Source: Candidatus Nealsonbacteria bacterium | Lineage (GTDB): Bacteria; Patescibacteriota; Minisyncoccia; Minisyncoccales; PWPS01 | DNA: 42,917 nt | Direction of reading: 5' to 3' | Assembly (NCBI GenBank): GCA_003560665.1 | Contig: PWKK01000029.1 | Location: forward strand, 1 to 42,917 | In this document: piece by piece, positions 5,911 to 27,426 of the stretch | Layout of the letters: the number at the start of each line of letters is the position of its first letter | Position numbering within the stretch: position 1 is the stretch's first letter | Program-made: the position numbers and the translations under genes | Notes under the pieces: model-generated | Told to the model about the DNA's origin: nothing | What the model saw: only the letters and a program-made list of their open reading frames with translations | Databases searched by the model: none

Positions 5911-5920
5911 AAAAAGGTCG
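5911..5920 (+). promoter_or_regulatory. AAAAGGTCG leader motif, copy 1, preceded by extended -10 TGATATGAT
   Basis: Exact 9-mer ending 21 nt before ATG 5942 and repeated upstream of three other genes. Confidence 0.6.
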
Positions 5921-5941
5921 TTTTTTAAAATTTAAAAAAAT

Positions 5942-6322
5942 ATGTCCCTAAAAAAGATAAAGAAAACAAAGAAACCTGTTTCTCCAAAAAAGAAGGCTAC
6001 TCCTACTAAAGAAACAACGAAAAAGAAAGCACCTCTAAAAACAAAAAAAGCGGGAACCAAAAAAATCACGAAGGAAAAACTTATCGGGAAAGTAGTTCAC
6101 TATTTCAACAAGGCCAAGGTTGCGGTAGTAAAGCTGAAAGCCCCTCTTGCCGTTGATGAAAAGATTAGAATTAAAGGGGGAGAGACTGATTTTACACAAA
6201 AAGTAAAGTCGATGGAAGTGGACAAAAAGAAGATTAAAAAAGCAAAAGCGAAACAGGAAGTGGGGTTGAAAGTGAGTAATAAAGCTCGAGAAGGGTACAA
6301 GGTTTTTAAGGTGGTGCAATGA
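5942..6322 (+). CDS. Small basic protein: Lys-rich N-terminal tail plus EF-Tu domain II/U32 C-terminal-like beta-barrel
   Basis: About 45 aa K/T/P/A low-complexity tail, then IGKVVHYFNKAKVAVVKL...IRIKGGETDFTQKVKSME...VGLKV...REGYKVFK. Confidence 0.7.
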   Translation: MSLKKIKKTKKPVSPKKKATPTKETTKKKAPLKTKKAGTKKITKEKLIGKVVHYFNKAKVAVVKLKAPLAVDEKIRIKGGETDFTQKVKSMEVDKKKIKKAKAKQEVGLKVSNKAREGYKVFKVVQ

Positions 6323-6324
6323 GA

Positions 6325-6351
6325 AAGCAGGGACAAAAAACGTCCCTGCTT
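6325..6351. terminator. Intrinsic terminator hairpin between convergent genes
   Basis: AAGCAGGGAC-AAAAAAC-GTCCCTGCTT is a perfect 10-bp stem followed by a T-rich tract. Confidence 0.75.
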
Positions 6352-6361
6352 GTTTTCCTTT

Positions 6362-6523
6362 TTACGGCGATGAATCTTTTGATTTTGACTCCTTCTTGTT
6401 ATCGATAATGTAGCTTTTTACCCTTTCTCCCGATAGTCCTGCGTCTTCTGCCTCTCTTTTAAGCTTGAGATAATCTTCTTCACTGATTGAAAGATTTCCC
6501 ACCACCACTATTATTTTTTCCAC
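6362..6523 (-). CDS. Uncalled 53-aa ORF, possible ribbon-helix-helix-like protein
   Basis: GTG 6523 to TAA 6362 gives MEKIIVVVGNLSISEEDYLKLKREAEDAGLSGERVKSYIIDNKKESKSKDSSP; strong SD AAAGGAGG upstream; ends just before the terminator hairpin. Confidence 0.6.
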   Translation of the reverse strand: MEKIIVVVGNLSISEEDYLKLKREAEDAGLSGERVKSYIIDNKKESKSKDSSP

Positions 6524-6635
6524 TTTAAACCCTCCTTTAAAAGTGTACTTTCTGGAACCTTATTAACACAACAAAGTGAAATTGTCAACTCTGATTGTAA
6601 TAACAACGCTTACAATTTTATTTAAATAATTATGT

Positions 6636-7079
6636 ATGAAGATAAAGAACAAGATAATTGAATTTCAAACAAAAGGAATTTTTCATTTCATAGATTTTAC
6701 GGATAAAGTAAAAGAGTTCGGTAAAAGAACGGGAGTAAGAAACGGATTAGTTAATGTACAGATAATGCACACCTCGGCGGGATTAATTTTAAACGAAAAT
6801 GAGCCCCTTTTGCTTGAAGATATCAAGGAAAAATTTGAAAAACATGCTCCGCAGAATAATTCATATAAGCACGATGATTTAACCAAAAGAACGGTTAATG
6901 TTTGTGATAATGAGTGCGTGAACGGGCACTCTCACTGTAATGCAATCTACTTGCAAGCAACAGTTACTTTAAATTTTTTTGGCGGTGAATTACAGCTCGG
7001 TCGTTGGCAAAACGTTATGCTTGTTGAACTTGACAGATCACGTCTAAGAAAAATACAACTTCAGATTATAGGAGAGTAG
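6636..7079 (+). CDS. yjbQ: YjbQ/UPF0047 family protein
   Basis: HTSAGLILNENEP, YKHD, NGHSH, LQLGRWQNVMLVELD. Confidence 0.9.
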   Translation: MKIKNKIIEFQTKGIFHFIDFTDKVKEFGKRTGVRNGLVNVQIMHTSAGLILNENEPLLLEDIKEKFEKHAPQNNSYKHDDLTKRTVNVCDNECVNGHSHCNAIYLQATVTLNFFGGELQLGRWQNVMLVELDRSRLRKIQLQIIGE

Positions 7080-7087
7080 CCTTTACG

Positions 7088-8761
7088 CTATTTTTTTAGG
7101 AGAGACAGTTGTTTTTTTACCTCTTCTTCGTCTATTTTTTTATAAAGAGGATTTGTTTTTTTAACTGAAACCTTTTCCGGAGAAGGATAAATCCATTTTA
7201 AATTGTCCGGAGAAGTGTTCATTTGATTACATATTTTCTGTGAAGTTTCAGGGAGGAAGGGAGAAATAAGAACTGCAAGGCACTTGATAACATGTGCGGC
7301 CACTGCCAGGTCTCTTTCTGCTCTTTGAGGATCGCTTTTGACCGTTGACCACGGCTCCTTGTCGTTAATGTAACGATTTCCGTAATCCACTAATTTAAAA
7401 ACAGCTTGCAGACCCTTTCTCAAGTGGCCCTTTTCAATACTTGACGCTACCAATGGGAAAGAATCTTCTGCCAACTTTAAAAAGGAAGACGAACTCTCGT
7501 CCGGGTTTTCCGGAAAAACAACGCCGTCTTTATAGTTTTTTTCAATAAAGGAAAGGGTGCGGTAGACGTAATTTCCAAAGTTTCCAATCAGTTCGCTGTT
7601 TATTTTAGAAGAAAACTCTTCCCACGAAAAATCCGCATCAGAGTTTTCCGAACCGTTAGCTATCAGGTAATATCTAAGGGTTTCAGAATCAAAATCTTCT
7701 AAAAAGTCAGAAAGCCAGATTGCCCAGTTCCTGCTTTTTGAGAACTGTTTTTTTTCCAGAGTAAGGTATTCAGAGGATATTATTTTGTCCGGGAGGTGGA
7801 GGTCTCCGTATCCCAGAAGAATTGCCGGCCAGATTACGGAGTGGAAAGGAATGTTGTCTTTTCCGTGGACATAGTAGTGAATCGCGTCTTTGTTTTTCCA
7901 AAAATCTTCCCAATTTCTTTTTTTTAACAAAGACCACTCTTTACTTGCCGAAAGATATGCGCAGACGGCTTCAAACCAGACATAGATTTTTTTTGACTCG
8001 TATCCTCTGAGAGGAACGGAAATTCCCCACTCGGTATCTCGCGTGATTGAGCGGTCGTGAAGACCCTGATGGAGCAGTTTCTCCGTGAAGTTTCTTGCGT
8101 TTATTCTCCATCCGCTACTCTCTTTAACCATTTTTTTGAGTTTTTTCTCAAAACCACTGAGCCGAAGAAAGAAGTGTTCCGCATCTTTCCAGAGGGGAGA
8201 ACTTTCACATATTTTACACTTGGGGTCGATGATTTTTTTTGTTTCCATTAAGCTTCCGCAACCGTCACACTGGTCTCCTCTAGCGGAAGTGAAGTTGCAA
8301 AGATAGCACTTACCTTCGATATAGCGGTCGGGAAGAAATTTTTTACATTTTTTACAATAAGGAAGGCGTTCTGTTTTTTTATAGATATCATTTTTCTCGT
8401 AAAGCTTTAGAAAAATGTCTTGTACTGTTTCACGGTGAACGTCAGATGTGGTTTTTGTAAAAAAGTCATAGGAAAAATCCATCCCGTCGATAAGGGTTTC
8501 GACAAACTCTCGATGGTATTTTTCGGCGATGACCGAAGGATGGGTTTTTTGTTTTTCCGCCTCGAAAAGAATCGGTGTCCCATGACAATCGCTCCCGGAA
8601 ACAAAGAGCACGGAATCTCCCTTTAAACGGAAATATCTTGCTAAAACATCAGCTCCGATAAGTCCGGCGACATGGCCAAGATGGAGAGAACCGTTAGCGT
8701 ACGGTAAGGCGGCTCCAATCATTATTTTTCTGTTCATAGTTTTTTGTTTTACTTTTACCAT
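7088..8761 (-). CDS. metG: Methionine--tRNA ligase (two Zn knuckles, no C-terminal tRNA-binding domain)
   Basis: ALPYANGSLHLGH (HIGH), SGSDCHG, four CxxC pairs, YVWFEA, HGKDNIPFH, FSKS (KMSKS-like). Confidence 0.96.
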   Translation of the reverse strand: MVKVKQKTMNRKIMIGAALPYANGSLHLGHVAGLIGADVLARYFRLKGDSVLFVSGSDCHGTPILFEAEKQKTHPSVIAEKYHREFVETLIDGMDFSYDFFTKTTSDVHRETVQDIFLKLYEKNDIYKKTERLPYCKKCKKFLPDRYIEGKCYLCNFTSARGDQCDGCGSLMETKKIIDPKCKICESSPLWKDAEHFFLRLSGFEKKLKKMVKESSGWRINARNFTEKLLHQGLHDRSITRDTEWGISVPLRGYESKKIYVWFEAVCAYLSASKEWSLLKKRNWEDFWKNKDAIHYYVHGKDNIPFHSVIWPAILLGYGDLHLPDKIISSEYLTLEKKQFSKSRNWAIWLSDFLEDFDSETLRYYLIANGSENSDADFSWEEFSSKINSELIGNFGNYVYRTLSFIEKNYKDGVVFPENPDESSSSFLKLAEDSFPLVASSIEKGHLRKGLQAVFKLVDYGNRYINDKEPWSTVKSDPQRAERDLAVAAHVIKCLAVLISPFLPETSQKICNQMNTSPDNLKWIYPSPEKVSVKKTNPLYKKIDEEEVKKQLSLLKK

Positions 8762-8839
8762 ATTTCTTGGTTTTTTCCAATGTATTTTTTCTATTTTATG
8801 TTATAGTTAAAAAATACAAAATTAATAAAATAAGAAAAT

Positions 8840-9625
8840 ATGAAAAAATTAGCGTCAATTTTTGTAATACTCTTTCTTCTTGTTTCTGTGGGGATTATCT
8901 TTTCTTCCCTACGGGAAATAACGGAGATGGAAAAAACGACTGAATACGTGCAAAAAGGAGAGGCGATAAGAGTTTTAGAAGGAGAAGATGTTTTCTTTGA
9001 GTATTCGATAGAGGAGTTTAGAGAGTGGGCAAAAGAAAATTGGGACGACATCTTCGAAACGCCCCCTTCATTTGGAGAAGTAAGAAAAGTAGATCCTGAA
9101 AACTTTTACCGGTTTGATGATAACGCTGCAATTTCTCCTCATTCTAACTTTTTGGCACTTTCTGTTAACGATTACGCCGTAGCAACCAGTATTTCCTTTA
9201 TTATAGTAATTGATCTCAACAGTGAGGAAGTGAGTTTGGTTGGTAAAGAAAATATGGGGGGAGTGCAAAGCTTGCACTGGTCTCCCGATGAAAATTATAT
9301 CGCTTACATTCTCGATACCGCCAGAGCACAAGGGGATTATCTTTCGGTTGACAATAGAGAGAACATGAAAAAAGAATTTACGCTTTCAGGAGAAGATATC
9401 TCTAACGCTCTCACCGAGAATGGTGATGGGGAAGACGGCGCATCACATCTTCATTTTATTCCGCTTTTCAGGGAGGTTGAGTGGAGAGAGGAACTTAACA
9501 GATTAAAATTTATAACCAACGGCTATACTGAAGGTTGTGATGGTGTAAGATGGAGCATTGATCCTCAGGGGAGGGACTTAAAGATGGAGGAAAAAATCAA
9601 AAAAAATACAGAAGAAAAACAATAA
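8840..9625 (+). CDS. Membrane-anchored acidic extracellular protein with TolB/WD40-like beta-propeller repeats
   Basis: N-terminal TM segment; AAISPHSNFLAL and LHWSPDENYIAY blade-like motifs. Confidence 0.55.
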   Translation: MKKLASIFVILFLLVSVGIIFSSLREITEMEKTTEYVQKGEAIRVLEGEDVFFEYSIEEFREWAKENWDDIFETPPSFGEVRKVDPENFYRFDDNAAISPHSNFLALSVNDYAVATSISFIIVIDLNSEEVSLVGKENMGGVQSLHWSPDENYIAYILDTARAQGDYLSVDNRENMKKEFTLSGEDISNALTENGDGEDGASHLHFIPLFREVEWREELNRLKFITNGYTEGCDGVRWSIDPQGRDLKMEEKIKKNTEEKQ

Positions 9626-9627
9626 AT

Positions 9628-10158
9628 ATGGAAGGCAAAGAAATTAGAATTAAAAAGTTTTCCACGCAAGACAAAAAAAGGGTAAAAGCTTTCTTGGATT
9701 TTAACCATTACGTGACAGAAGAGGAGCTGATGCTTGCGGAAAACAGAAGAAGAACGCCAAAAGAAGAGGAAAGGCGCTTGGAAAGAATATTGAAAGCGAC
9801 TAACAGAAAAGAAGAAGCTCTTTTGTTTGTTGAAGATGAAGAGAAAATTGTCGGAACAGTAAAAGTTAGTTTACGCACTGGCGCAAGAAGTCACGTGGCG
9901 GAAGTAAGTAGTCTTATAATCCGAAAAGATTATCGAAGAATGGGTTTGGGGAAAAGGTTGATGACCGAGGTAATCGCCACGGCGAAAAAAGAACTGAAAA
10001 GAAAACCAAAGATTCTTCGGTTAAGTGTTTTTGCAGTGAATGAACCGGCGATAAAACTTTACACCAAGTTCGGCTTTAATGCTGTAGCCAGCATCCCCAA
10101 ACAACTCCAGTACAAGAAAAAAATGGTAGACGAAACGATAATGATAAAGATAATTTAA
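9628..10158 (+). CDS. GNAT family N-acetyltransferase
   Basis: IRKDYRRMGLGKRLM (acetyl-CoA motif A) and LSVFAVNEPAIKLYTKFGF. Confidence 0.9.
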   Translation: MEGKEIRIKKFSTQDKKRVKAFLDFNHYVTEEELMLAENRRRTPKEEERRLERILKATNRKEEALLFVEDEEKIVGTVKVSLRTGARSHVAEVSSLIIRKDYRRMGLGKRLMTEVIATAKKELKRKPKILRLSVFAVNEPAIKLYTKFGFNAVASIPKQLQYKKKMVDETIMIKII

Positions 10159-10187
10159 AATTTGCTTTAAAATTTCTTTAAGATATA

Positions 10188-10805
10188 ATGGACGAAGAAA
10201 TAAAAACGTATTGCTTTGATTTTGACGGTACAATCGCCGATACCATTCCACTGATTATCAAAACATTGGATTCTCTTTTAAAGAAAAGTGGGGAAGAAGA
10301 GATAAGCGATACTTTTTTAAGGAAAATAAGGGACGAGGGGGTAGAAGAAGTTTTTCGTGAAATAAAAGTTCCGCTTTACAAGTTGTTTTTTTTATACATA
10401 AAAATAAAAAAAGAAATGAATAGCGGGGTGGTTGATGTTGCTGTTAATCCGGAAATAAAAGAAGTATTGAGGGAGTTAAAGAGCAGGGGAATTGTGCTCG
10501 GTATTTTAACTTCAAATTCTGAAAAGAATGTGCTAGACTTTCTCAAGCGTAATGATTTAAATTTTTTTGACTTTGTAATAACTTCAGGGGTACTGGGGAA
10601 AGAGAGATCAATTAAAAAACTAAAAAGAAAAGGAGGGATTTTTGTCTATATCGGCGATGAAACGAGGGATATAAAAGCAGGCAAAAGGGCAAGAGTAAAG
10701 ACGGTTGCCGTCCCGTGGGGACTTAGCTCAAAAAGAGCACTGCTTAAATCAAGACCGGATGTTTTAATTGAAAAACCAGGCGACATTTTGGAAATCTCCT
10801 TTTAG
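10188..10805 (+). CDS. HAD-IA hydrolase (phosphoglycolate phosphatase-like)
   Basis: FDFDGTIADT, GILTSN, YIGDETRDI, AVPWG. Confidence 0.9.
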   Translation: MDEEIKTYCFDFDGTIADTIPLIIKTLDSLLKKSGEEEISDTFLRKIRDEGVEEVFREIKVPLYKLFFLYIKIKKEMNSGVVDVAVNPEIKEVLRELKSRGIVLGILTSNSEKNVLDFLKRNDLNFFDFVITSGVLGKERSIKKLKRKGGIFVYIGDETRDIKAGKRARVKTVAVPWGLSSKRALLKSRPDVLIEKPGDILEISF

Positions 10806-10831
10806 ATTTTTTTCTTTTCGTAATATATATT

Positions 10832-12040
10832 ATGAATAAAAAGGTGCTAATGTTCGGTTGGGAATTTCCGCCCCATAACAGCGGGGGACTTGGAGTCGCT
10901 TGCTACGGACTTTCAAAGGCAATATCCAAGACTGGAACGAAGATAATCTTTGTTCTCCCGAAAAAATTAAAAGGCATCAAGAGCAGTTTTTTGAAAATAG
11001 TTAGCCCGGGGACAACATACAAAACCTCTTATTATTTTAATTCGTCTATTTATCCTTACGCAACATCATCAACATCACAAAAAGCGACATCAGACTTTTT
11101 TAAATTTGCAGACATTAAGGGAAACAGCTTAGTTGAAGAAGTTTTACGTTACGCCTCTTTTGGAGGAGAAGTGGCAAAAAAAGAAAAGTTTGATGTTATT
11201 CATGCACATGACTGGCTTTCTTTTGGAGCCGGGTTACAGGCAAAAAAAGAAAGCGGAAAGCCACTTGTCGCCCACGTGCACGCAACTGAATTTGATCGGG
11301 GAGGGGGAACGGGTATCAACCCCTTTGTTTATCGACTAGAGAGAAAAGGAATGGAGGGTGCAGATAAGGTGATTGCGGTCAGTAATTTTACTAAAGAATT
11401 AATCGTGAAGCACTACGGAATCTCTCCGGAAAAAGTTGAGGTAGTGCATAACGGAATTGATTTTACAGAAAAAGAAGAACTTTCGGAAAATATTCACAAA
11501 GTAAAAGAGGCGGGAAAGAAAATTGTTTTGTTTGTTGGTCGTCTTACTCTTCAAAAAGGACCTGATTACTTTATTAAGGCGGCAAAAAGAATTTGTGATT
11601 TTTCAGAAGATATCTATTTCGTTATTTCTGGGTCGGGTGACATGGAGTACCAACTGATAGAAGAAGTTGCTAGAATGGGTATCTCCGATAAAGTTCTTTT
11701 CACAGGGTTTTTAAGAGAGAAGGGGTTAAGTGAAATTTACCGCACAGCAGACTTGTTTGTGATGCCGTCGGTTTCGGAACCTTTTGGAATAACTCCACTT
11801 GAGTCATTAATAAATGGCACGCCTGTTCTTATATCAAACCAGTCAGGGGTTTCGGAGGTTATAACCCATGCCTTAAAAGTTGACTTCTGGGATGTTGACG
11901 ATATGGCCGGAAAAATTTTGGCGACACTAAATTACGGTTCACTTTCTGATTGTCTTGTTGAAAATGGAAGGAAGGAAGCGGAAAAACTGACGTGGGACAG
12001 TGCGGCGGAAAAATGCATTAGTATATATAATAACGTATAG
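10832..12040 (+). CDS. GT4 glycosyltransferase (alpha-glucan synthesis cluster type)
   Basis: MFGWEFPPHNSGGLG, IHAHDW, HVHATE, FVGRLTLQKG, MPSVSEPFGITPLE. Confidence 0.92.
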   Translation: MNKKVLMFGWEFPPHNSGGLGVACYGLSKAISKTGTKIIFVLPKKLKGIKSSFLKIVSPGTTYKTSYYFNSSIYPYATSSTSQKATSDFFKFADIKGNSLVEEVLRYASFGGEVAKKEKFDVIHAHDWLSFGAGLQAKKESGKPLVAHVHATEFDRGGGTGINPFVYRLERKGMEGADKVIAVSNFTKELIVKHYGISPEKVEVVHNGIDFTEKEELSENIHKVKEAGKKIVLFVGRLTLQKGPDYFIKAAKRICDFSEDIYFVISGSGDMEYQLIEEVARMGISDKVLFTGFLREKGLSEIYRTADLFVMPSVSEPFGITPLESLINGTPVLISNQSGVSEVITHALKVDFWDVDDMAGKILATLNYGSLSDCLVENGRKEAEKLTWDSAAEKCISIYNNV

Positions 12041-12060
12041 AATTAAATTCTATCTAATCT

Positions 12061-13281: not shown

Positions 13282-13292
13282 TTTAATTCTAT

Positions 13293-15089: not shown

Positions 15090-15091
15090 TT

Positions 15092-18051: not shown

Positions 18052-18057
18052 ACTGCC

Positions 18058-18157: not shown

Positions 18158-18207
18158 TTGCATAATTTCAATAATTAACTATAATGCTTGTAGGTTTTAA
18201 AAGGTCG
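18158..18207 (+). promoter_or_regulatory. Promoter plus AAAAGGTCG leader motif, copy 2
   Basis: TTGCAT(18158)-16 nt-TATAAT(18180); motif at 18199-18207, 24 nt before ATG 18232. Confidence 0.6.
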
Positions 18208-18231
18208 ATTTACACATTAAATAAAACAGAT

Positions 18232-18480
18232 ATGGACACTAAAAAGATACTTATCGTCATTGCGATAGTTTTGGCTGTAGTAGTAGTGGTTGCTGCTTTC
18301 TCCTTGATGGATGAACCTACCGAGCTTCCTGAAGATATAGATCTCATCGATGATGAAGACCCGTTTGTAGATGATGATGACTTTTTCGATGATTTTGAGG
18401 AAGACGACGAAGATGAAGACGACGAAGATGAAGACGACGAAGATGAAGACGACGAAGAAGAAGAAGAGATAGAAGAATAA
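18232..18480 (+). CDS. Small single-pass membrane protein with poly-Asp/Glu tail
   Basis: MDTKK, a hydrophobic helix, then a D/E-dominated tail; own promoter and terminator. The ORF-track ATG 18184 overlaps the -10 box. Confidence 0.75.
   Translation: MDTKKILIVIAIVLAVVVVVAAFSLMDEPTELPEDIDLIDDEDPFVDDDDFFDDFEEDDEDEDDEDEDDEDEDDEEEEEIEE
18400..18458 (+). repeat. In-frame 15-bp tandem repeat GAAGACGACGAAGAT (3 copies plus 14/15)
   Basis: Units start at 18400, 18415, 18430 and 18445 and encode EDDED. Confidence 0.9.
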
Positions 18481-18504
18481 AACCAATTTATTTTGAAAGA
18501 TTAG

Positions 18505-18551
18505 AGAGCCCTTTTGCATGCTCTTAGAGCGTAAAAGGGCTTTTGTTTTTT
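18505..18551 (+). terminator. Intrinsic terminator
   Basis: GCCCTTTT...GCTC-TTA-GAGC...AAAAGGGC stem followed by TTTTGTTTTTT. Confidence 0.7.
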
Positions 18552-18592
18552 ATCTAAATATGGTATTCTCGTTGGTAGAGATTGGCAGAGAA

Positions 18593-19633
18593 ATGTCTAA
18601 AATTCGTAAAATAATAATTATCGGAAGTAGCATCTGTGGAACGATTGCTCTAACTGTTCTTTTTATTTCTCTAGGGGAAGAGTTTTTTCCGAGAGAGGAT
18701 GTTCCAACAATGAGAGAGGGTGGTGTTATCGCTGAAAGTTGGATAAGAAACTTTTCTCCCACATACACTCTTTCCGGAAAAGATATCTGGATTACAAACA
18801 GCGAAGAGATTGAGAGGGGAGAGTATGAGTTTGTTTTTTCGTTTATAACCGAAAGCCCTGAATACGGCACGCACGAAAATGAGATGAAGGTTAGAACAAA
18901 AAACACGGAGGTGGTAAGTGCGATTACTAATGGTATTTTCGATGAAATCAGCGGCAATTATCTAGAAAAAGAAGAAACAGTTGATCTTTATTTTGTAATT
19001 GAAGAAGAAGAGGAAAGAAGCATTCGTGCGGTAGAAAGATCAATTTCTGTTTCGGCGGTGGAAAATATCGAAGAAGTACTTCTCGCAGAGCTTTTCAAAG
19101 GACCGAGCGTAGAAGAAAAAGAAGCGGGTTATCTTACCTTTATTGAGGATGCAACAAGGATTTTTTCGTTTAGAGTTGAGAACGGAACTGCCTTTATCGA
19201 GCTTAGTACCCCTTTTGACCAGCAACCGGAAATTGCTGCAGAACAGATAAAGCGAACTCTTCTTCAGATAGATGGTGTCAGTGAAGTGAGAGCTCCGGAA
19301 AGAAGAAGGAGGGTTACTCTTGAAATAGAAGGAGTGCCGGAAGATTTTCTCTTTACAGAAGATTTAGACGAAGGATCAGAGGGAGTAGATGTAAGGTATT
19401 TACAGATTGTTTTAAACGCTGATCCTGAGACAATGGTTGCTCAGCAAGGGCCGGGATCTCCCGGCGAAGAGGTTGAGTCGTTCGGATCATCAACAACTCA
19501 CGCAGTGATGGCATTTCAAAGAAAGTATGACGATGAAATACTGAAGCCTGCAGGATTGATTTTAAGCACGGGGATTGTTGATGAGCACACAAGAGATAAA
19601 CTTAATTCTATTTTAGAAGAAAGTAGGTGGTAG
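18593..19633 (+). CDS. Membrane-anchored GerMN-domain protein with C-terminal peptidoglycan-binding (PG_binding_1-like) domain
   Basis: TM helix after MSKIRK; VDLYF...ELFKGPSVEEKEAGY...QIKRTLLQIDGVSEV (GerMN); LDEGSEGVDVRYLQIVLN...FGSSTTHAVMAFQRKY...TGIVDEHTRDKLN. Confidence 0.75.
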   Translation: MSKIRKIIIIGSSICGTIALTVLFISLGEEFFPREDVPTMREGGVIAESWIRNFSPTYTLSGKDIWITNSEEIERGEYEFVFSFITESPEYGTHENEMKVRTKNTEVVSAITNGIFDEISGNYLEKEETVDLYFVIEEEEERSIRAVERSISVSAVENIEEVLLAELFKGPSVEEKEAGYLTFIEDATRIFSFRVENGTAFIELSTPFDQQPEIAAEQIKRTLLQIDGVSEVRAPERRRRVTLEIEGVPEDFLFTEDLDEGSEGVDVRYLQIVLNADPETMVAQQGPGSPGEEVESFGSSTTHAVMAFQRKYDDEILKPAGLILSTGIVDEHTRDKLNSILEESRW

Positions 19634-19634
19634 C

Positions 19635-19662
19635 AAGGGGAAACCCCTTATATAAAAGGTCG
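19635..19662 (+). promoter_or_regulatory. Hairpin AAGGGG-AAA-CCCCTT followed by AAAAGGTCG motif, copy 3
   Basis: Motif at 19654-19662, 28 nt before ATG 19691. Confidence 0.6.
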
Positions 19663-19690
19663 AACTATTAATCAGTTTTAATTATGTATT

Positions 19691-20482
19691 ATGATTAACA
19701 AATTATTAATTGGAATCGTACTTGTAGTCGTTGTTGCCTTGATCGGGTTCTTCATTTCTACTTTAGATATGCCTGAGCCTCTCGACGACGACGAAGTTGA
19801 AGAGTATGTTAATATCGCTGAAGAGTGGATTCGTGAAAATGCAAAAACTTTTACCGAAAGAGGGGGATCTCAACTAGAACACATTAGAACAGTCGAGTTA
19901 GAGGAGGGGGTATACGAGATAGCTTTTGAATTTGAAGCTGCTTTCGCCGGATACGGACCGGTAGATGAAGATGAAATGGCTGCACAAGTGATTACTCCAC
20001 ACACCGTAGTGGTAATAGTGGAGGATGGAGAAGTGGTCAGCGTTATTACAGATGAGGAGTATGACGAAATGGAAGGGAGAGAGGTCGAAGCAGTGGAGGA
20101 AATAGATGAAGATATGGTTACAATAGATGTTTATTTCGTAACAGTAGAAGATGGTATGGAAGGAGTTAGTGCCGTAACAAGAGAGTTTCCGGTGCCTCAA
20201 GACATAAAAGTGTATGCTTTAAATGAGTTACTGGAAGGACCGACCAGTGAAGAAGAGGCGGAAGGGTACTCAACCGCAATAGACGAAGAAACGACACTTA
20301 ATTCCCTTTCTATCGAGGAAGGAGTCGCTTATGCAGATTTTAGTGCAGAGCTGGATGCCTCCGGATCTGCAACCGTAATGATGATTCGTGATCAGATTGA
20401 GAGGACGCTTCTTCAGTTTGAAACAGTAGATGAGGTTGTGATATCTATTGAAGGAGAAACAGAAGAAATCTTACAGCCCTAA
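19691..20482 (+). CDS. Membrane-anchored acidic GerMN-domain protein, paralog of the upstream gene
   Basis: N-terminal TM; IDVYF...ALNELLEGPTSEEEAEGYSTAI...AYADFS...QIERTLLQFETVDEVVISIEGETEEILQP. Confidence 0.82.
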   Translation: MINKLLIGIVLVVVVALIGFFISTLDMPEPLDDDEVEEYVNIAEEWIRENAKTFTERGGSQLEHIRTVELEEGVYEIAFEFEAAFAGYGPVDEDEMAAQVITPHTVVVIVEDGEVVSVITDEEYDEMEGREVEAVEEIDEDMVTIDVYFVTVEDGMEGVSAVTREFPVPQDIKVYALNELLEGPTSEEEAEGYSTAIDEETTLNSLSIEEGVAYADFSAELDASGSATVMMIRDQIERTLLQFETVDEVVISIEGETEEILQP

Positions 20483-20518
20483 TTCTTGAAGAGGACAGAC
20501 TTTACGGGATATTTTCTG

Positions 20519-20550
20519 AAAAACGGCGAGAAATCGCCGTTTTTCTTTTT
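20519..20550 (+). terminator. Intrinsic terminator
   Basis: AAAAACGGCGA-GAAA-TCGCCGTTTTT followed by CTTTTT. Confidence 0.8.
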
Positions 20551-20574
20551 AACAAATTGATGTAAAATAAACGT

Positions 20575-21432
20575 ATGGCTCAAGAAAAACCTAAAATAGG
20601 TGCTCACGTTTCAGTCTCCGGAGGATTGCTCAAGGGAATAGAAAGAGCAGAGGAGATGGGGGCAGAGTGCTTCCAAATTTTTGCAGGGAGTCCGCGAAGA
20701 TACGAGGTACCTCTTTTTGCAAAAGAGGAAATAGATAATTACAAGAAAAAGATTTGTCAAAGTCAGATATCTCCTGCCTACATTCATGCAAGTTATCTGC
20801 TCAACCTTGCGTCAGAGGATGATAATATTCTCCAAAAATCTTTGAAAAGTATTCAAGATGCACTTTTTTTTGCAGATCGTATCGGTGCGGATGGCGTAGT
20901 ATATCACCCCGGCTCTCCGAAAGGAGGATCAAAAGAAAAGGCGATCAAAAGAGAGATTAAAAGTATTTTAGAGGTCTTAAGCAAAACTCCTGAAAATACT
21001 TTTCTTGTTATCGAGAACACGGCTGGTCAAAAGAAGATCGGAACTAATCCCGAGGAAGTAGGATATATTTTTCGGAAAGTGAATTCCTCCCGCCTGCGAG
21101 TTTGTATTGATACCGCTCACTCACTTGAGGCCGGAAACATAAAAAGATTTACCGAGAAAAAGATTAAGGAATGGTTTGCATTGTGGGAAAAAGAAGTTGG
21201 CGTGCAAGGCGTGTGTCTTTTGCATATTAACGATTCTTTAACTTCTCCCGAATCTCAACACGACCGGCATGCTAACATCGGAGAAGGTTTTATCGGACTG
21301 GAGGGATTTAAAAAACTGATGAGTTTCAAGAAGATTGCTGATATTCCTTGGATACTGGAAGTTCCCGGGTTTGACGGAAAGGGCCCTGATAAAAAAAACA
21401 TAGATATATTAAAGAAAATGCGGGCAAAGTAG
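20575..21432 (+). CDS. nfo: Endonuclease IV (AP endonuclease family 2)
   Basis: IGAHVS, IHASYLLNLAS, HPGS, IENTAG, CIDTAH, HINDS, DRHANIGEG, ILEVP. Confidence 0.95.
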   Translation: MAQEKPKIGAHVSVSGGLLKGIERAEEMGAECFQIFAGSPRRYEVPLFAKEEIDNYKKKICQSQISPAYIHASYLLNLASEDDNILQKSLKSIQDALFFADRIGADGVVYHPGSPKGGSKEKAIKREIKSILEVLSKTPENTFLVIENTAGQKKIGTNPEEVGYIFRKVNSSRLRVCIDTAHSLEAGNIKRFTEKKIKEWFALWEKEVGVQGVCLLHINDSLTSPESQHDRHANIGEGFIGLEGFKKLMSFKKIADIPWILEVPGFDGKGPDKKNIDILKKMRAK

Positions 21433-21544
21433 AGAAAGAGTCATTTTAAAGAGTTTGCCTTTTTCTGATATTCAATATAAAATGAGAAGAAAATGGGATA
21501 AGTATTGCTTATCTCAGATTAGTTTAATAATTAATAAAAAAGAT

Positions 21545-21991
21545 ATGACTAATGAAAAAAGAGTGGTTGTCGGAGGAACATTTGACTCTTTTCACAAAGG
21601 GCACAGGGGTTTTTTGGAAAAAGCGTCATCGCTGGGAAGTGTAAAAATCGGGCTTACTTCCGATCAAATGGCCAAAGAAACAAAAGGAGTGGAAGTTGAA
21701 CCGTTTGAAGACCGCCGTAAACATCTTCTCGAATTTCTTCCGAGTGCAGAGATAGAGGAGATAACTGATCCTGTTGGGTTTGCGACAATTGAAGATTTTT
21801 ATTATATTGTCGTTTCTCCGGAGACGAGAAACCGTGCGGAAAGAATAAATGAGGAGAGGAGAAATTCCGGTAAAGAGGAGATAGAGATTGTAGAAATGGA
21901 ATTTGTTCTTGCCGAAGACGGGGAGCCCATTTCTTCCACGAGAATAAGAGAAGGAGATATCGACAAAGAGGGTAAAGTAATAAACCGATAA
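21545..21991 (+). CDS. coaD: Phosphopantetheine adenylyltransferase, archaeal/eukaryotic type
   Basis: VVVGGTFDSFHKGH, IGLTSD, IVVSPET, INEERR, VLAEDGEPISSTRIREGDID. Start at ATG 21545. Confidence 0.85.
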   Translation: MTNEKRVVVGGTFDSFHKGHRGFLEKASSLGSVKIGLTSDQMAKETKGVEVEPFEDRRKHLLEFLPSAEIEEITDPVGFATIEDFYYIVVSPETRNRAERINEERRNSGKEEIEIVEMEFVLAEDGEPISSTRIREGDIDKEGKVINR

Positions 21992-21995
21992 AGAG

Positions 21996-22298
21996 ATGAG
22001 AAAAGTAATGGACTTCCATGAAATTGCGGAGATTATCACTAAAGCTCTCATTGAAAAGAAGATAGTAGAGATTTATTATCCGCGTACAAATAAAAGCGAA
22101 GAAGGTTGGAGAGAAATAGAACCAGAGAGTATTACAACGGACATTCCCCCTGACGGGGAAAGACTTGTTGCAGGTGAAGACAGGTTGAGTCCCGGACATA
22201 TTTTAAACGCCTATGACGCTGGGTCGAAAAGAAAAGAGTTGAAGTCTTTTATTTTTGGCAAAATTAAACAAGCACGTATTTCATCGTGTCACTGTTAA
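21996..22298 (+). CDS. Stand-alone WYL-domain protein
   Basis: ITKALIEKKIVEIYY...WREIEP...ILNAYD...ELKSFIFGKI follows the WYL pattern; no HTH or WCX domain. Confidence 0.65.
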   Translation: MRKVMDFHEIAEIITKALIEKKIVEIYYPRTNKSEEGWREIEPESITTDIPPDGERLVAGEDRLSPGHILNAYDAGSKRKELKSFIFGKIKQARISSCHC

Positions 22299-22308
22299 GC
22301 AAAAAAGT

Positions 22309-23751
22309 ATGGATGTTGATTACCAGGCAATCATAGAAAAAGCGAGGGACGGAGTAGTGGTTGTTGATGAAGGAGTTATCAAATATGTAAATCCGTCCGT
22401 AACAAATTTTTTGGGCTATGACAAGGAAGATTTTCTCGGTGCAAAATTTTTAAGCTTTATCTATAAAAAAGACCGAGAAAAAATTCAAAAAAATTACGAA
22501 GAAAAGGTGAGAGGATCAGAGAATTTTCTCTACGAAACAAAAATGAAAAAGAAAGACGGAAGCTTGCTGACGGTGGAAGTTCGAGCACAAAAGATAAAAA
22601 ATCGGGAGAAGGTGGTAGATTTAGCAATTATTAGAGATGTTAGTTCGCGGAAAAAAGCGGAAGAAGTTTTCTTTAGGCAAGAAGAAAGATTTCATGCTGT
22701 TACGGAAAACACGCCTGACATTATTGCTCGATTTGATCGAGATTACCGTTACGTGTATATCAATGCGGCCGGAGAGGATGCTCTTGGAATTTCAAGAAAG
22801 GATATTTTTTGGAAAACAGAGAGAGATATCGGAGTAGAAGAAGAGAAAGCGGGAGCATTCGAAGACGCAATCAGTTTTGTTTTTAAAAACCGCAAAAGGA
22901 AAACTTTCTACAGCGAAATGACGGTTAAAGGTGAAAAAAGACATCACTACACCATCATGGTTCCGGAATTTTTTGCAGACGGAGATGTTAATTCGGTGTT
23001 AAGCATTACGAGGGATATTACGAAAATAAAAGAAATTGATCAGATAAAATCAGAATTTATCTCGATCACTTCACATCAACTTCGTTCTCCACTTTCTGTA
23101 ATAAGTTGGTGTTCACTGGCTCTTATTCGGGGAGACTTCGGAAAAATTTCCGAAGAGAAAAAAAAGTACATGGAAAAGATTCATGAATCTGCGCAGAAGC
23201 TAATTAAGATAACGGACGTCTTTCTTGATACGACGATGATTGACCTGGAGATGTTTATTTTTAATCCTAAAAAAGTAGATATCGCGGAAGAGGCGAAGGC
23301 AGTTACGCGAGAGTTTGCCAATCTTGTAGAAAAGAAAAAAATCAAATTCACCGAAGATTATAAGAATCTTTCTCCGGTAAGATTTGACCCCCGTGTTTTA
23401 AAAATTATTTTCCGAGGAATAATCTCTAATGCATTGGAGTATACTGCAAAAGGAGGAGAGGTTTACTTTGTCCTAGAAAAGAAAGGTGATGGAGAAATAT
23501 ATTTGGAAGTAGGCGATAGTGGCTGTGGAATATCAAAAAAGAATAAAGAAAAAATATTTACGAAGTTTTATCGTGCAAAGGAGGCGAGAGATATAAAGAC
23601 GTACGGAACCGGTCTTAACCTTTATCTTATAAAATCTATTCTGGATAACATTGGAGGAAGTATCGAGGTGCAATCTCCGAACCCGAGATTTGGCAAAGGA
23701 ACGGTTTTTTATATAAAATTTCCGGTTTCTGCCAAAGAAAAATCCCTATAA
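22309..23751 (+). CDS. Cytoplasmic PAS-PAS sensor histidine kinase
   Basis: Two PAS/PAC units (YVN...IRDVS; YIN...TRDIT), H-box SHQLRSPL, N-box IISNA, G1 DSGCGI, F-box IFTKF, G2 GTGLNL; no TM segment. Start placed at ATG 22309. Confidence 0.9.
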   Translation: MDVDYQAIIEKARDGVVVVDEGVIKYVNPSVTNFLGYDKEDFLGAKFLSFIYKKDREKIQKNYEEKVRGSENFLYETKMKKKDGSLLTVEVRAQKIKNREKVVDLAIIRDVSSRKKAEEVFFRQEERFHAVTENTPDIIARFDRDYRYVYINAAGEDALGISRKDIFWKTERDIGVEEEKAGAFEDAISFVFKNRKRKTFYSEMTVKGEKRHHYTIMVPEFFADGDVNSVLSITRDITKIKEIDQIKSEFISITSHQLRSPLSVISWCSLALIRGDFGKISEEKKKYMEKIHESAQKLIKITDVFLDTTMIDLEMFIFNPKKVDIAEEAKAVTREFANLVEKKKIKFTEDYKNLSPVRFDPRVLKIIFRGIISNALEYTAKGGEVYFVLEKKGDGEIYLEVGDSGCGISKKNKEKIFTKFYRAKEARDIKTYGTGLNLYLIKSILDNIGGSIEVQSPNPRFGKGTVFYIKFPVSAKEKSL

Positions 23752-23761
23752 TATTTTATTT

Positions 23762-26700
23762 GTGGAATTTGAAAAAAGATATAAAAATCTTAATACAAAG
23801 CAACGTCTCGCAGTAAACCATATTGAAGGACCCCTTATTGTTATTGCCGGCCCTGGGTCGGGAAAAACAGAGCTGTTGGCGGTAAGAACTGCTAATATTC
23901 TCAAAAAAACGGACACACCGCCACAAAGTGTTCTTTGTCTTACTTTTACCAGTGCAGCGGCAATTAATATGAAAGAAAGGCTTTTTAATCTTATTGGAGA
24001 AGAATCCTATAAGGTTCCCGTGCACACTTTTCACAGTTTTTGCCTTGGAATAATTGAAAATTACCCCGACCTTTTTTTTAAAGGAGTTGATTTTGTTTTG
24101 GCCGATCAACCTACAAAGATGAAAATACTGGAAAGTGTTTTAGAGAGATTAAGTTTTGACGATCCGTTAAAGAAGCACCATCCGGAAGGCGGGTATGCTT
24201 ATCTAAGTGATATAGAAAGAGCAATTTTTTATCTACAGGACGGGGGAGTGAGCCCCATGGAACTCGAAAAAATATTGAGAGAAAACAAAAAAGAGATTAA
24301 AAAAATAAACAAACTGATCGGAAAGTTTTTGGAAAAAAGAATAAACAAAGAAACCCTTTCTTCCCTTGAAAAGTTTTTCAATGAAAGAGAAAGGTTAACA
24401 GAAGGGAGTAGTCGTTTAAAACCACTTTCAGAGGTAGTGTTTGGCTCTTTAAAAGAAGCGGTTTTTTCCGGGGAAACGACCAATCTTTCTGAATGGAAGC
24501 GAAAGATGACAAGAAGAGATGGAGGAGTGTTGGTTTTTAAAGAAACACTGCAGATGGAAAAATTAGAAAGCTTGGCAAAAGTCTACAACACATATCGTGA
24601 AGAGATGGACAAAAGAGGTTACTATACTTTTTCCGATATGATTTTAAATGTTACAGAGGTTTTGGAAAGAAACGAATCCTTAAGGTGTGAATTAAGGGAG
24701 AAATATCTTTATCTTCAGATTGATGAGTTTCAAGACACAAGTGGAGTACAGATGCGCCTCTTAAACCTTTTAACTCGTGATCAGGTGGATGAAAAGCCAA
24801 ACATTTGTGTTGTTGGAGATGACGATCAAGCCATTTACCGTTTCCAGGGAGCAGACATTTCCAATATACTTACATTCCAAGAAAAATATGCGAATGCAAA
24901 GATGGTTGTTCTTTTGAAAAATTATCGCTCGGTGCGAAAGATAACGGATGTTTCTCGGAGGGTTGTTTTGAAGGCAGAGGACCGTTTGGAAAATCGTTTT
25001 CCCGGGATAAAGAAAGACCTTGTCTCGGAGACTAAAAATGAAGGAAATATCATCGGAAGAACATTTCAGACGAAAGAAGAAGAACTTTCTTATGTTGCAA
25101 AAGAAGTAAAGAAAAAGATAGAAAAAGAAAATCCGGAAGAGATTGCGGTGATAGCAAGAACACACAACGAGATAAAGGAAGCACTCTGCTATCTCAATTC
25201 TCTAAAGGTTCCCACTTTTTCCGAAAGAAAAGAAAATGTTTTGGAAAAATCACACATCAGAGAAATTGTAACTATTTTGAGGTTTTCCGCCTATCTTTTA
25301 GAAAAAGAAGACAAGGGCGCAGAAGCACTTCTACCCGAGATATTGTCCTTTCCTTTTTTAAAAATAAAGAGAGAAAAGATTTGGGAGATTGCAAAAGAGA
25401 GTCACCAAAAAAAAATATCCTGGATAGATTATATTCTCGATGACTCCAAGACAAGGGATACAGGAAAGTTTTTGCTGGAAGTTTCTTCACTTGCAAAGAC
25501 GCATCCGGCGGAAGATGTTATCGATGTTATCATCGGGAACAAAGAGGTAGTGCTTGAGGGGAGGAAGAAGTTTTTTTCCGGATTTAAAGATTTTTATTTC
25601 AAAGAAAAATTAGAAGAAGGGAAGACAGAAGAATATCTCTCATTCCTTTCTTCATTAAGGTGCTTTATAACCGCTGTTAGAAAACACCGAAGGAAAAAAT
25701 ATATTGGAGTAAAAGAAGCAGTTGATCTTGTTGAATTCTACGAAAAAAACAAAATTCCGATTTTAGACAAGAACCCTCTTGTATCTGAGAAAGATGCTGT
25801 TTCTTTGATTACTGCTCACGGAGCAAAGGGAAGGGAATTTGAAACGGTTTTCGTTTTAAACTGCAATCAAAGTTCATGGGGAAAAGAAAAAGGAGCCGGA
25901 AAACTTTCTTTCCCGATGAACCTTCCTCTCGAAAAGGCGGGAAACAAAAGAGATGAAATGATAAGGCTTTTTTATGTAGCGATTACTCGAGCAAAAAAAG
26001 ATCTTTATTTGACAACCTACAAAAAGAAAAGAGACGGTAGGGAGTTGATGAACCTTGAATTTATCAGTGACCTTGAGATGGAAGAAAAAAGAGAAAAAGT
26101 AGATGAGGGCGCAGTTGCTTATTCTATCAATCATGAAAATATTCTCTCTTTCTGTAAAAATGAAAAAAACCTTCTCCTCCCTTTGGCTGAAAACTATAAA
26201 CTAAGTGCAACGGGATTTAACAAGTTTTTAAATGTTGATTCCGGCGGCCCGCAAAGATTTTTTGAAGACACTCTTCTTCGCTTTCCGCAAAAAAAGACAA
26301 AAATGCTTTCTTACGGGACAGCGGTGCATGGTGCAATTGCGGAAATACAATATATTTTAAAGAAAGAAGAAAAGTTGTTGTCTGAAAAAGAGTTTTTAGA
26401 ACTCTTTGAAAAGTTTCTGGAAAGAGAAAGATTGTCTGAAGAAGATTTTTCCGAAACGTTGAAACGTGGGAAGAAAGAGCTGCCTCTTTTTTACAAGGAA
26501 AAGATAAAATATTTTTCTCCGGAAAATATTGCGGAGAAAAACTTTGCCGATGAGGGTTGTTTTATAGGAGGTGTTCCGATTACCGGAAAGATTGATAAAA
26601 TGATTATTGATGGAAAAAGCATAAAGGTTTTTGACTATAAGACGGGCGCCCCGCTTATCAGCTGGAGAGAAAAAGAAGAGAACAAAAAGATAAAAGCTTG

Positions 26701-26995
26701 GCAGTATAGAAACCAACTTCTTTTTTACAAACTTTTAATTGAGAGCTCGAGAGATTTTGACGGGTATGTTGTCTCTGATGGTTTTTTAGAGTTTATTACT
26801 CCCGACAAAGAAAAAAAAATAATCACTCTTCCTCTGAAAATCGAGGAAGAGGATGTTAGAAGAGTTACAACGCTCATCGAAGTAATAGGGAAAAAGATAC
26901 TTTCTTTAAACTTTCCTTCTGTTTATAAGTACAAAAAGAAGTCGCTGAAAAGCATTCAAAAATTTGAGGAAGACCTTCTTGAAGGAAATATTTAA
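23762..26995 (+). CDS. UvrD/PcrA-family SF1A helicase fused to a C-terminal PD-(D/E)XK nuclease
   Basis: LNTKQ, AGPGSGKT, IDEFQD, VGDDDQAIYRFQGA, NYRS, TAHGAKGREF, RLFYVAITRAK; C-terminal GTAVH, GKID, DYKTG, QLLFY. Confidence 0.92.
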   Translation: MEFEKRYKNLNTKQRLAVNHIEGPLIVIAGPGSGKTELLAVRTANILKKTDTPPQSVLCLTFTSAAAINMKERLFNLIGEESYKVPVHTFHSFCLGIIENYPDLFFKGVDFVLADQPTKMKILESVLERLSFDDPLKKHHPEGGYAYLSDIERAIFYLQDGGVSPMELEKILRENKKEIKKINKLIGKFLEKRINKETLSSLEKFFNERERLTEGSSRLKPLSEVVFGSLKEAVFSGETTNLSEWKRKMTRRDGGVLVFKETLQMEKLESLAKVYNTYREEMDKRGYYTFSDMILNVTEVLERNESLRCELREKYLYLQIDEFQDTSGVQMRLLNLLTRDQVDEKPNICVVGDDDQAIYRFQGADISNILTFQEKYANAKMVVLLKNYRSVRKITDVSRRVVLKAEDRLENRFPGIKKDLVSETKNEGNIIGRTFQTKEEELSYVAKEVKKKIEKENPEEIAVIARTHNEIKEALCYLNSLKVPTFSERKENVLEKSHIREIVTILRFSAYLLEKEDKGAEALLPEILSFPFLKIKREKIWEIAKESHQKKISWIDYILDDSKTRDTGKFLLEVSSLAKTHPAEDVIDVIIGNKEVVLEGRKKFFSGFKDFYFKEKLEEGKTEEYLSFLSSLRCFITAVRKHRRKKYIGVKEAVDLVEFYEKNKIPILDKNPLVSEKDAVSLITAHGAKGREFETVFVLNCNQSSWGKEKGAGKLSFPMNLPLEKAGNKRDEMIRLFYVAITRAKKDLYLTTYKKKRDGRELMNLEFISDLEMEEKREKVDEGAVAYSINHENILSFCKNEKNLLLPLAENYKLSATGFNKFLNVDSGGPQRFFEDTLLRFPQKKTKMLSYGTAVHGAIAEIQYILKKEEKLLSEKEFLELFEKFLERERLSEEDFSETLKRGKKELPLFYKEKIKYFSPENIAEKNFADEGCFIGGVPITGKIDKMIIDGKSIKVFDYKTGAPLISWREKEENKKIKAWQYRNQLLFYKLLIESSRDFDGYVVSDGFLEFITPDKEKKIITLPLKIEEEDVRRVTTLIEVIGKKILSLNFPSVYKYKKKSLKSIQKFEEDLLEGNI

Positions 26996-27027
26996 TTGAT
27001 ATTGGTGCATTTAATCACTTGATGAAA

Positions 27028-27060
27028 AATAAAAACACTGATTTAATCAGTGTTTTTATT
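27028..27060. terminator. Perfect inverted repeat, probable bidirectional terminator between the helicase gene and hup
   Basis: AATAAAAACACTGAT-TTA-ATCAGTGTTTTTATT. Confidence 0.75.
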
Positions 27061-27078
27061 GTCTAACCGTAGAGGTTG

Positions 27079-27351
27079 CTATTTAATCAAGTCTTTAAGC
27101 GCTTTTCCAGGCTTAAACTTGGGAACTTTAGAAGCGGCAATCTTAATCTTCTCTTGAGTTCTCGGATTGATTCCTTGTCGTGCCTTTCTCTTGGCGACAG
27201 AAAAGGTTCCGAATCCCGTGAGAGTTACATCTTTTCCTTTTTTCAGTGAAGCACTAATTTCATCCAAAATAGTGTTAAGGCTTTTTTTTGCCTCACTCTT
27301 GGATACTTTGGTTTTTTCAGCTAATTTTTCGACAAGTTCTTCTTTTTTCAT
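27079..27351 (-). CDS. hup: DNA-binding protein HU
   Basis: MKKEEL, GFGTF, RKARQGINPRT, PKFKPGKALK. Confidence 0.96.
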   Translation of the reverse strand: MKKEELVEKLAEKTKVSKSEAKKSLNTILDEISASLKKGKDVTLTGFGTFSVAKRKARQGINPRTQEKIKIAASKVPKFKPGKALKDLIK

Positions 27352-27377
27352 AGATTAATTTTTTTAAATTAAATAAT

Positions 27378-27426
27378 CGACCTTTTGTGCTAAGCCATTA
27401 TAACAGTATTGGTAAATTTTTTTCAA
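27378..27426 (-). promoter_or_regulatory. hup promoter plus AAAAGGTCG motif, copy 4
   Basis: Minus strand TTGAAA-18 nt-(TGT)TATAAT; motif at 27386-27378, 26 nt before ATG 27351. Confidence 0.6.

Follow-up and report, generated by a model that had tools for sequence, protein, structure and literature searches.

A strand-specific 8-nucleotide motif in mRNA leaders of a Candidatus Nealsonbacteria genome, and a possible partner in the apical loop of 16S rRNA helix 26

The Shine-Dalgarno (SD) sequence is a short, purine-rich leader element, lying about 5-10 nt before the start codon, that is complementary to exposed 16S ribosomal RNA (rRNA) at the platform and mRNA exit of the 30S subunit. A second rRNA-complementary element, the STAB-SD of Bacillus (cryIIIA), sits close to the 5' end of the mRNA and well away from the start codon, and stabilises the mRNA by pairing with the canonical anti-SD. 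Leaders may also carry elements of other kinds: CIRCE, the HrcA operator, is an inverted repeat with the consensus TTAGCACTC-N9-GAGTGCTAA, and the CsrA/RsmA site has GGA at its core, frequently within a hairpin loop. Here we describe a leader motif, AAAGGTCG, that came to attention as the 9-mer AAAAGGTCG in contig PWKK01000029.1 of assembly GCA_003560665.1 (Candidatus Nealsonbacteria bacterium). This contig, C29 of the assembly, was analysed over its whole length of 42,917 bp and is referred to below as the window; the window's genome comprises 679,080 bp in 30 contigs, with 39.6% G+C.

Two further systems are close to what we propose for the motif. The tip of helix 26 (h26) of eukaryotic 18S rRNA is reported to pair with a 9-nt element of the Gtx leader and with loop IIId in the internal ribosome entry site (IRES) of hepatitis C virus (HCV), and in HCV adenines are described as clustering beside the h26 contact (PMC6316650, PMC4756818). 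Bacteroidia are reported to initiate translation independently of SD sequences, on A/U-rich, unstructured leaders (PMC7797042, PMC13000457).

The motif is real, strand-specific and conserved. Genes were called with our own codon-usage open reading frame (ORF) picker, giving 680 genes (87% coding) and 390 upstream regions of at least 25 nt, which total 42.4 kb and make up 3.1% of sequence space. Counting both strands, AAAGGTCG has 27 copies in the genome; 14 are in upstream regions in the sense orientation and none are in upstream regions in antisense, so that the strand and position bias seen at four window sites in an earlier note on this DNA extends genome-wide. Sense upstream regions hold 0.52 of the copies where the baseline is 0.031 (about 16-fold), a share that ranks first among 8-mers with at least 8 upstream copies, ahead of TGTATAAT (0.33), AAAGGAGG (0.23) and TTGACAAA (0.21), and exceeds that of -10, -35 and SD-like words. 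All 24 one-letter variants have only 0-4 sense copies each and none is enriched. When leaders were chosen on AAGGTC alone (n = 19), the preceding base was A in 18, the following base was G in 13 and the next was A in 10, giving the consensus AAAGGUCG(A). Conservation was assessed in 30 relatives from the same genus, family or order by seeking AAGGTC within 150 nt upstream of orthologous genes. It was found in sense before 12 of 13 HU loci, 23 of 29 GroES loci (as AAAGGTC in 22) and 18 of 20 Hsp20 loci; altogether, these 62 leaders have 53 sense and no antisense occurrences. The motif has been kept in these leaders while its flanks have diverged.

We defined a leader-type copy as one followed within 120 nt by an ATG-initiated ORF of at least 45 aa, with a spacer of at least 70% A+T. 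Thirteen copies qualify, with spacings of 20, 21, 21, 24, 26, 28, 28, 30, 30, 39, 43, 57 and 80 nt (median 28 nt; 20-30 nt in nine of the 13). Among orthologous leaders, HU has the motif 22-36 nt from the start and Hsp20 mostly 24-29 nt, and the range for GroES is 22-121 nt; no spacing is below 15 nt. The tight distance constraint proposed in the earlier note is therefore not borne out, and a loosely placed tether fits better than an element that positions the start codon. Seven of the 13 leader-type copies have recognisable -10 boxes, which end 2-30 nt before the motif; since the motif lies 3' of these boxes and of CIRCE-like operators, it would be transcribed if those promoters are used. Folds of the motif leaders are weak and inconsistent, with no shared secondary structure. 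Three alternative readings at the level of promoters or start codons were tried and rejected: a normally spaced SD is ruled out because no alternative start lies 5-12 nt 3' of any window copy; a -35 element of leaderless transcripts is ruled out because the spacers of 12 HU leaders have no -10 box at a fixed distance, and is also countered by strong canonical promoters upstream; and a discriminator or initiator promoter element is ruled out by the variable gap to the -10 box.

An RNA-level, strand-specific leader element, which the earlier note had preferred to a dimeric operator, is supported by the strand count, by conservation in orthologous leaders and by the position 3' of -10 boxes. We also considered that a monomeric or asymmetric transcription factor might bind the motif as a DNA operator and act as a roadblock just 3' of promoters. 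This could explain the motif's closeness to -10 boxes (within about 2-30 bp) and its place beside or inside the CIRCE-like operators of groES and hsp20, and why one leader on contig C18 (approximately 6854-6874, minus strand) has two copies of AAAGGTCG 12 bp apart, the sole tandem case seen. Nonetheless, we regard such an operator as very improbable because the strand bias is absolute, at 14:0 in the window's genome and 53:0 in orthologous leaders; moreover, the distance to the -10 box varies, and apart from the tandem case there is no palindrome or repeat, which would be unusual for operators. CIRCE itself co-occurs with the motif only in the groES and hsp20 leaders. Unlike CIRCE, AAAGGTCG is asymmetric and occurs in sense only, and it also precedes genes that have no CIRCE, such as those for HU, the GerMN protein and the pilin. 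It likewise differs from the CsrA/RsmA site, being an 8-mer without GGA and with no conserved hairpin around it.

The genes that carry the motif form a small set. Two of them, groES and hsp20, have it in leaders that lie behind CIRCE-like inverted repeats. The motif also lies 5' of the genes for HU, a KhpA/KhpB-type KH protein, an Rrf2 regulator, a receiver-domain protein, a type IV secretion system (T4SS)-type pilin, a DUF4412 protein, the GerMN protein and a number of small acidic proteins with membrane anchors. The 13 leader-type genes include none for a ribosomal protein or an elongation factor, which speaks against the suggestion in the earlier note of a general signal for highly expressed genes.

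The motif occurs in a lineage whose relatives have lost the anti-SD. No 16S gene is assembled in the window's genome; all eight order-level relatives with a 16S 3' end (four of them from the same genus) lack CCUCC in the tail after helix 45 (h45), an example of such a tail being GGAAUAAUUAACUUUUU. In the class sample, CCUCC is kept in 16 of 27 properly anchored 16S genes; in other classes nearly all genes keep it. An anti-SD motif is reported for 48% of Parcubacteria; lineages that lack it are reported to overlap the group that has no uL1 (Tsurumaki et al. 2022, PMC9297842). We did not find uL1 in the window's genome, which, together with the anti-SD loss in relatives, matches this published subgroup lacking both. 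A four-domain S1 protein is encoded there. Loss of the anti-SD in part of Parcubacteria is thus already published (PMC9297842). Of the earlier claim that motif genes start without an SD, the observation holds, but the absence is a trait of the whole lineage and not of these genes. Like the motif lineage, Bacteroidia are described as lacking SD use lineage-wide and as having A/U-rich, unstructured leaders; by contrast, they are reported to keep an anti-SD that is sequestered, and the abstracts describe no discrete upstream 8-mer (PMC7797042, PMC13000457).

Some SD-like sequences remain in the window's genome. GGAGG lies within 20 nt of the start in 46 of 676 genes, and at 4-11 nt it precedes 16 of 570 genes on large contigs versus 22 of 102 on small contigs. 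Several of the small contigs (C7, C9, C16, C23, C25 and C27) have 57-66% G+C, compared with 39.6% for the genome, and probably entered the bin as contamination or foreign DNA. The sequence AAAGGAGGGT(T) recurs 7-8 nt before a few starts, for example at 3802-3821 and 6524-6543 on the minus strand of the window, upstream of genes 3355-3801(-) and 6362-6523(-), and also on other contigs of the genome; it is an SD-like remnant in a genome whose relatives have no anti-SD.

A candidate partner for the motif is found elsewhere in 16S rRNA. Searching the 16S genes of relatives for complements of AAAGGUCGA identified UCGACCCUU, which complements the motif at 8 of 9 positions, in seven of eight relatives, and UCGACCCUA in the eighth. 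The site is a short hairpin, CUUGAAG-UGUCGACC-CUUCAAG, that has the loop UGUCGACC in all eight relatives, and the Rfam alignment places it at h26 (model positions about 819-848). Within this loop, UCGACC is a perfect 6-bp Watson-Crick complement of GGUCGA, with a predicted duplex energy of -11.0 kcal/mol. The rRNA pairing suggested in the earlier note thus gains a concrete candidate in modified form: the match is not an exact CGACCUUUU, but the h26 apical loop offers contiguous complementarity to the leader motif. The exposure of that loop is taken from literature on E. coli; bacterial h26 is described as surface exposed and close to bS1/uS2, the 16S 3' end and the mRNA 5' end (PMC11800381, PMC10123108). 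In Parcubacteria, h26 is reported to be highly conserved, and its role there without an SD helix is called unknown (PMC9297842). Two other rRNA partners were tried and rejected. A single 8/9 complement occurs in one of three same-genus 23S genes and is not conserved. The new 16S 3' tail of this order has GUCGAC about 20 nt past h45, which could pair with GGUCGA(U) only through two wobbles, and the trailer element of other orders, being of the same sense as the motif, cannot be its partner.

Evidence that the h26 loop pairs with sequences of this type comes from precursor 16S rRNA. We took the 150 nt 3' of 16S as the trailer at 65 Patescibacteria loci. GGTCG occurs in 36 of the 65 trailers, versus five of 65 5' leaders, and four control 5-mers occur in 4-11 of the same trailers. 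The trailer element lies 20-110 nt past the 16S end and is usually GGUCG(A/G), complementary to the h26 apical loop. Where the loop differs, the trailer differs to match. Scoring the trailers of other genomes (n = 63) for an equally good match to each variant loop, we found one in only two for loop CAUAGAUC (own trailer GAUCUAU), one for AUCGGUC (GACCGAU), six for UUUCAAAUC (GAUUUGA), seven for UUGACC (GGUCAA) and 13 for UCGACU (AGUCGA). Two sister families of one class provide a double compensatory change: in family f134, with the loop UCGGUC, GACCG is in the trailers of seven of eight genomes and GGTCG or GTCGA in none, while in family f109, with the loop UCGACC, GGTCG or GTCGA is in nine of nine and GACCG in none. 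The element lies 98-108 nt past the 16S end in f134 and 53-75 nt past it in f109. In addition, the base 5' of UCGAC in the loop covaries with the trailer base that follows GUCGA (Fisher p = 1.2e-4, a value that overstates independence because the genomes are related): with G in the loop the trailer has C in 11 of 14 cases, and with A in the loop it has C in one of 15 and U in eight of 15.

This covariation shows that the h26 loop pairs with GGUCG-type sequences, and we conclude that precursor 16S rRNA pairs its 3' trailer with the h26 loop. Literature term searches found no mention of such pairing, a published survey of leader-trailer helices giving 0 hits for h26 (PMC11404451), and it looks like a pre-rRNA interaction that has not yet been described. 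Its occurrence across Patescibacteria could bear on 30S biogenesis whatever the leader motif does. As a separate observation on these loci, the regions upstream of 16S in two relatives have a boxA-like GTTCTTTTGAAAA after a TTGACA/TACAAT promoter, and both loci have a long leader-trailer helix, well outside the GUCGAC element.

We propose that the leader motif docks the 30S subunit on h26, as a relocated SD, a standby site or a stabiliser element; we think this quite possible while leaning slightly towards doubt, and both the mRNA pairing and its effect are inferred from sequence. Transcribed near the 5' end of the leader, AAAGGUCG(A) would base-pair with the h26 apical loop (UGUCGACC in this genus), which faces the solvent on the 30S platform, next to the mRNA exit. 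Motif and pre-16S trailer element are of one sequence type, and the motif would use the same loop once the trailer has been removed. Placed in an unstructured, A/U-rich leader, as a rule 20-30 nt ahead of the AUG, it would tether 30S to a small set of mRNAs in a lineage that has lost its anti-SD tail, those for HU, GroES, Hsp20, the KhpA-like protein, the pilin and small acidic envelope proteins, and could raise initiation much as a standby site or relocated SD would. A docked 30S might also shield the mRNA 5' end from RNase J; such protection is conceivable given that both RNase J and RNase Y are encoded in the window's genome. A more far-reaching version, in which the trailer masks the loop in immature subunits and its removal licenses mature ones, so that a maturation checkpoint and the recruitment of selected mRNAs through the leader 8-mer would share one loop, seems to us doubtful.

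Comparison with the known systems brings out what would be particular to such docking. Like an SD, the motif is a short, purine-rich leader element complementary to exposed 16S rRNA at the platform; it shares AAAGG with the rare AAAGGAGG sites of the window's genome, and the predicted energy of its duplex is comparable to that of an SD. Unlike an SD, it would have the h26 loop and not the 3' tail as partner, AAAGGUCG is not complementary to CCUCC, it lies 20-80 nt from the start and not at 4-12 nt, it is strict where SD sequences are degenerate, and it is found on about 2-4% of genes. STAB-SD is similar in its complementarity to rRNA close to the 5' end of the mRNA, with RNase J encoded in the organism, but the canonical anti-SD is missing here, and a stabilising role is for the motif a proposal. 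Docking on h26 would share with the Gtx and HCV IRES interactions the rRNA helix, its apical region, the mRNA exit side and Watson-Crick pairing; those interactions involve the eukaryotic 40S subunit and unrelated loop sequences, so the likeness is one of analogy and not homology.

Several observations weigh against docking on h26. The h26 loop and 16S tail of the window's genome are inferred from four same-genus genomes, and the loop is assumed to be free in the mature subunit of these organisms. The UCGACC loop core is invariant in the class sample wherever h26 could be parsed, leaving the mRNA motif without a covariation signal of its own. The loop is also conserved phylum-wide, including in lineages that use SD sequences, and trailer pairing alone could explain that conservation. 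In the SD-using lineages, HU and GroES leaders have GGAGG in six of eight cases and GGTC in none. The same leaders of five genomes with variant h26 loops, which use GGAGG and carry no loop-complementary element, do not bear on docking either way. The AAA of the motif, strictly required in 18 of 19 leaders, is outside the loop pairing and is not a feature of the trailer element. Wobble variants such as AAAGGTTG are not enriched (no sense upstream copies among 53), although trailers tolerate GGUUGA, and none of the 19 AAGGTC leaders extends the pairing to GGUCGAC. Spacing to the start is loose, at 39-80 nt in four of 13 leaders and as much as 121 nt for GroES; the motif is confined to about 2-4% of genes; and on large contigs GGAGG still has a weak residual peak at 4-11 nt. 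Finally, a crude class-wide count of AAAGGTCG-N15-35-ATG has no clear excess over a reversed-pattern control, with 12 matches versus nine in the window's genome (class-wide, 1,163 matches, of which 150 were listed).

Some of these points would be expected if the motif were instead the site of a sequence-specific RNA-binding protein that governs a post-transcriptional regulon of chaperones, nucleoid and envelope proteins, its likeness to the h26 complement being coincidental or secondary. This is the main rival to docking, and we consider it unlikely. It would account for the strictness of all eight positions, AAA included, and for the absence of wobble variants, which are unlike degenerate SD-type pairing, as well as for the loose spacing and the small, thematically narrow gene set. 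The KhpA/KhpB-type KH protein, which has the motif in its own leader as is often the case with autoregulated RNA-binding proteins, is one candidate binder. Against such a regulon, no candidate is tied to the motif, and it would take a notable coincidence to yield a perfect 6-bp match to a surface loop beside the mRNA exit that has a cis partner of this very sequence type: by a rough estimate, the chance of finding a 6-mer complement in the approximately 1,500 nt of 16S is near 0.3, but it is far less within the h26 loop.

The occurrence of the same sequence type in 16S trailers, where processing must occur, also permits a reading independent of the ribosome, with the motif as a determinant of RNA processing or stability, such as an RNase Y-type site or a 5' stabiliser, and the same factor reading the 16S trailer. 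RNase J and RNase Y are encoded, and the motif lies near predicted 5' ends; however, covariation between trailer and h26 loop points to RNA-RNA pairing and not to a fixed recognition sequence for a protein, and leaders have no conserved local structure around the motif. We judge this improbable. Lastly, a strict, sense-only 8-nt leader motif resembles a seed match, as for a trans-acting small RNA carrying CGACCUUU. The 13 non-leader copies, which lie antisense in coding sequences or in terminator stems, gave no obvious small RNA gene in a non-exhaustive look across the 30 contigs, and no conserved complement was found in 23S rRNA; a small RNA target is, to our minds, scarcely credible.

Our literature searches found no description of the motif, or of pairing between mRNA and h26 in bacteria. 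Docking of leaders on h26 would give bacteria their first counterpart to the h26 docking known from Gtx and HCV IRES translation, and it would explain the strong conservation of h26 in Parcubacteria, which is left open in the published account (PMC9297842). How mRNAs are chosen and loaded in bacteria without SD pairing is an open field, and data are scarce for the uncultured candidate phyla radiation. What this analysis offers is a testable cis element: a strict 8-mer with order-wide conservation and a named rRNA partner, for which the natural pairs UCGGUC/GACCGA and UCGACC/GGUCGA are ready-made compensatory mutants.

Within the window, exact search found AAAAGGTCG five times, with four copies in leaders and one antisense in a coding sequence (Table 1); dinucleotide shuffles of the window contain 0.97 copies on average, and at least five copies occurred in one of 100 shuffles. 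The four leader copies had all been placed correctly, with their strands and spacers, in the earlier note, and the -10 boxes it gave for three of them are likewise there; the fifth, exact copy had been missed, only partial matches within coding sequences having been claimed. We take it as a chance copy. Read site by site, the four spacers have 83-100% A+T (100% for copy 1, at 5921-5941) and no SD-like sequence. The doubtful weak copy is a C-variant, none of whose 10 copies genome-wide counts as lying in an upstream region, so that this variant is not enriched.

Table 1. Motif copies in the window and the promoter elements beside them.
Feature	Position	Strand	Context
Copy 1 of AAAAGGTCG	5912-5920	+	21 nt 5' of ATG 5942, Lys-rich protein gene (5942-6322)
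-10 box TATGAT, TG at -14/-15	5902-5907	+	Ends 4 nt 5' of copy 1
Copy 2 of AAAAGGTCG	18199-18207	+	24 nt 5' of ATG 18232, acidic membrane protein gene (18232-18480)
Sigma-70-type promoter, TTGCAT / 16 nt / TATAAT	18158-18163 / 18180-18185	+	Ends 13 nt before copy 2
Copy 3 of AAAAGGTCG	19654-19662	+	28 nt 5' of ATG 19691, GerMN-domain gene (19691-20482)
Copy 4 of AAAAGGTCG	27378-27386	-	26 nt 5' of ATG 27351, HU gene (27079-27351)
Extended -10 box TGTTATAAT, HU promoter	27405-27397	-	Ends 10 nt before copy 4
Fifth exact copy of AAAAGGTCG	24067-24075	-	Antisense in coding sequence 23762-26995; no downstream ORF
Weak copy CAAGGTCG, doubtful	31292-31298	+	Last codons of gene 30465-31328; 40 nt 5' of ATG 31339

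The four genes match their earlier descriptions to differing degrees. Pfam assigns the HU and GerMN/Germane gene products to PF00216 and PF10646, respectively; the Lys-rich protein, earlier called a beta-barrel, has only a weak, sub-threshold match to a barrel domain, and no Pfam family was found for the acidic membrane protein. At copy 1, transcription is predicted to start within the A-run of the motif. At copy 2, the longest ORF starts at 18184, within the -10 box, and runs through the motif; translation plausibly starts at the in-frame ATG 18232. The motif may therefore be of use in annotation, marking true 5' leaders and aiding the choice of start codons. Copy 3 is preceded by a GGGGAAACCCC hairpin and TATATA, with no clear -10 box. 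This hairpin (19634-19646) has no T-run and lies directly 3' of the stop codon of gene 18518-19633, 8 nt 5' of the motif; it may act as a terminator or a processing site, or belong to the promoter context.

The CIRCE-like repeats noted above are TGGCACT-N9-AGTGCCA for hsp20 (contig C1, 223800-223845) and TTAGCACTC-N9-nnTGCTAA for groES. In a class-wide sample of other families, GGTC(G) lies inside the 9-nt CIRCE spacer in 11 of 29 groES leaders. Our groES ORF call, which starts 14 codons upstream of MKIKPL, is probably too long. In the genus of the window, groES leaders have a conserved hairpin, tgtccgaaattgattttcatataaggaca, between the motif and the GTG/ATG start at MKIKPL (contig C1, approximately 42530-42574, in the window's genome), and this hairpin may be a thermosensor or translational regulator.

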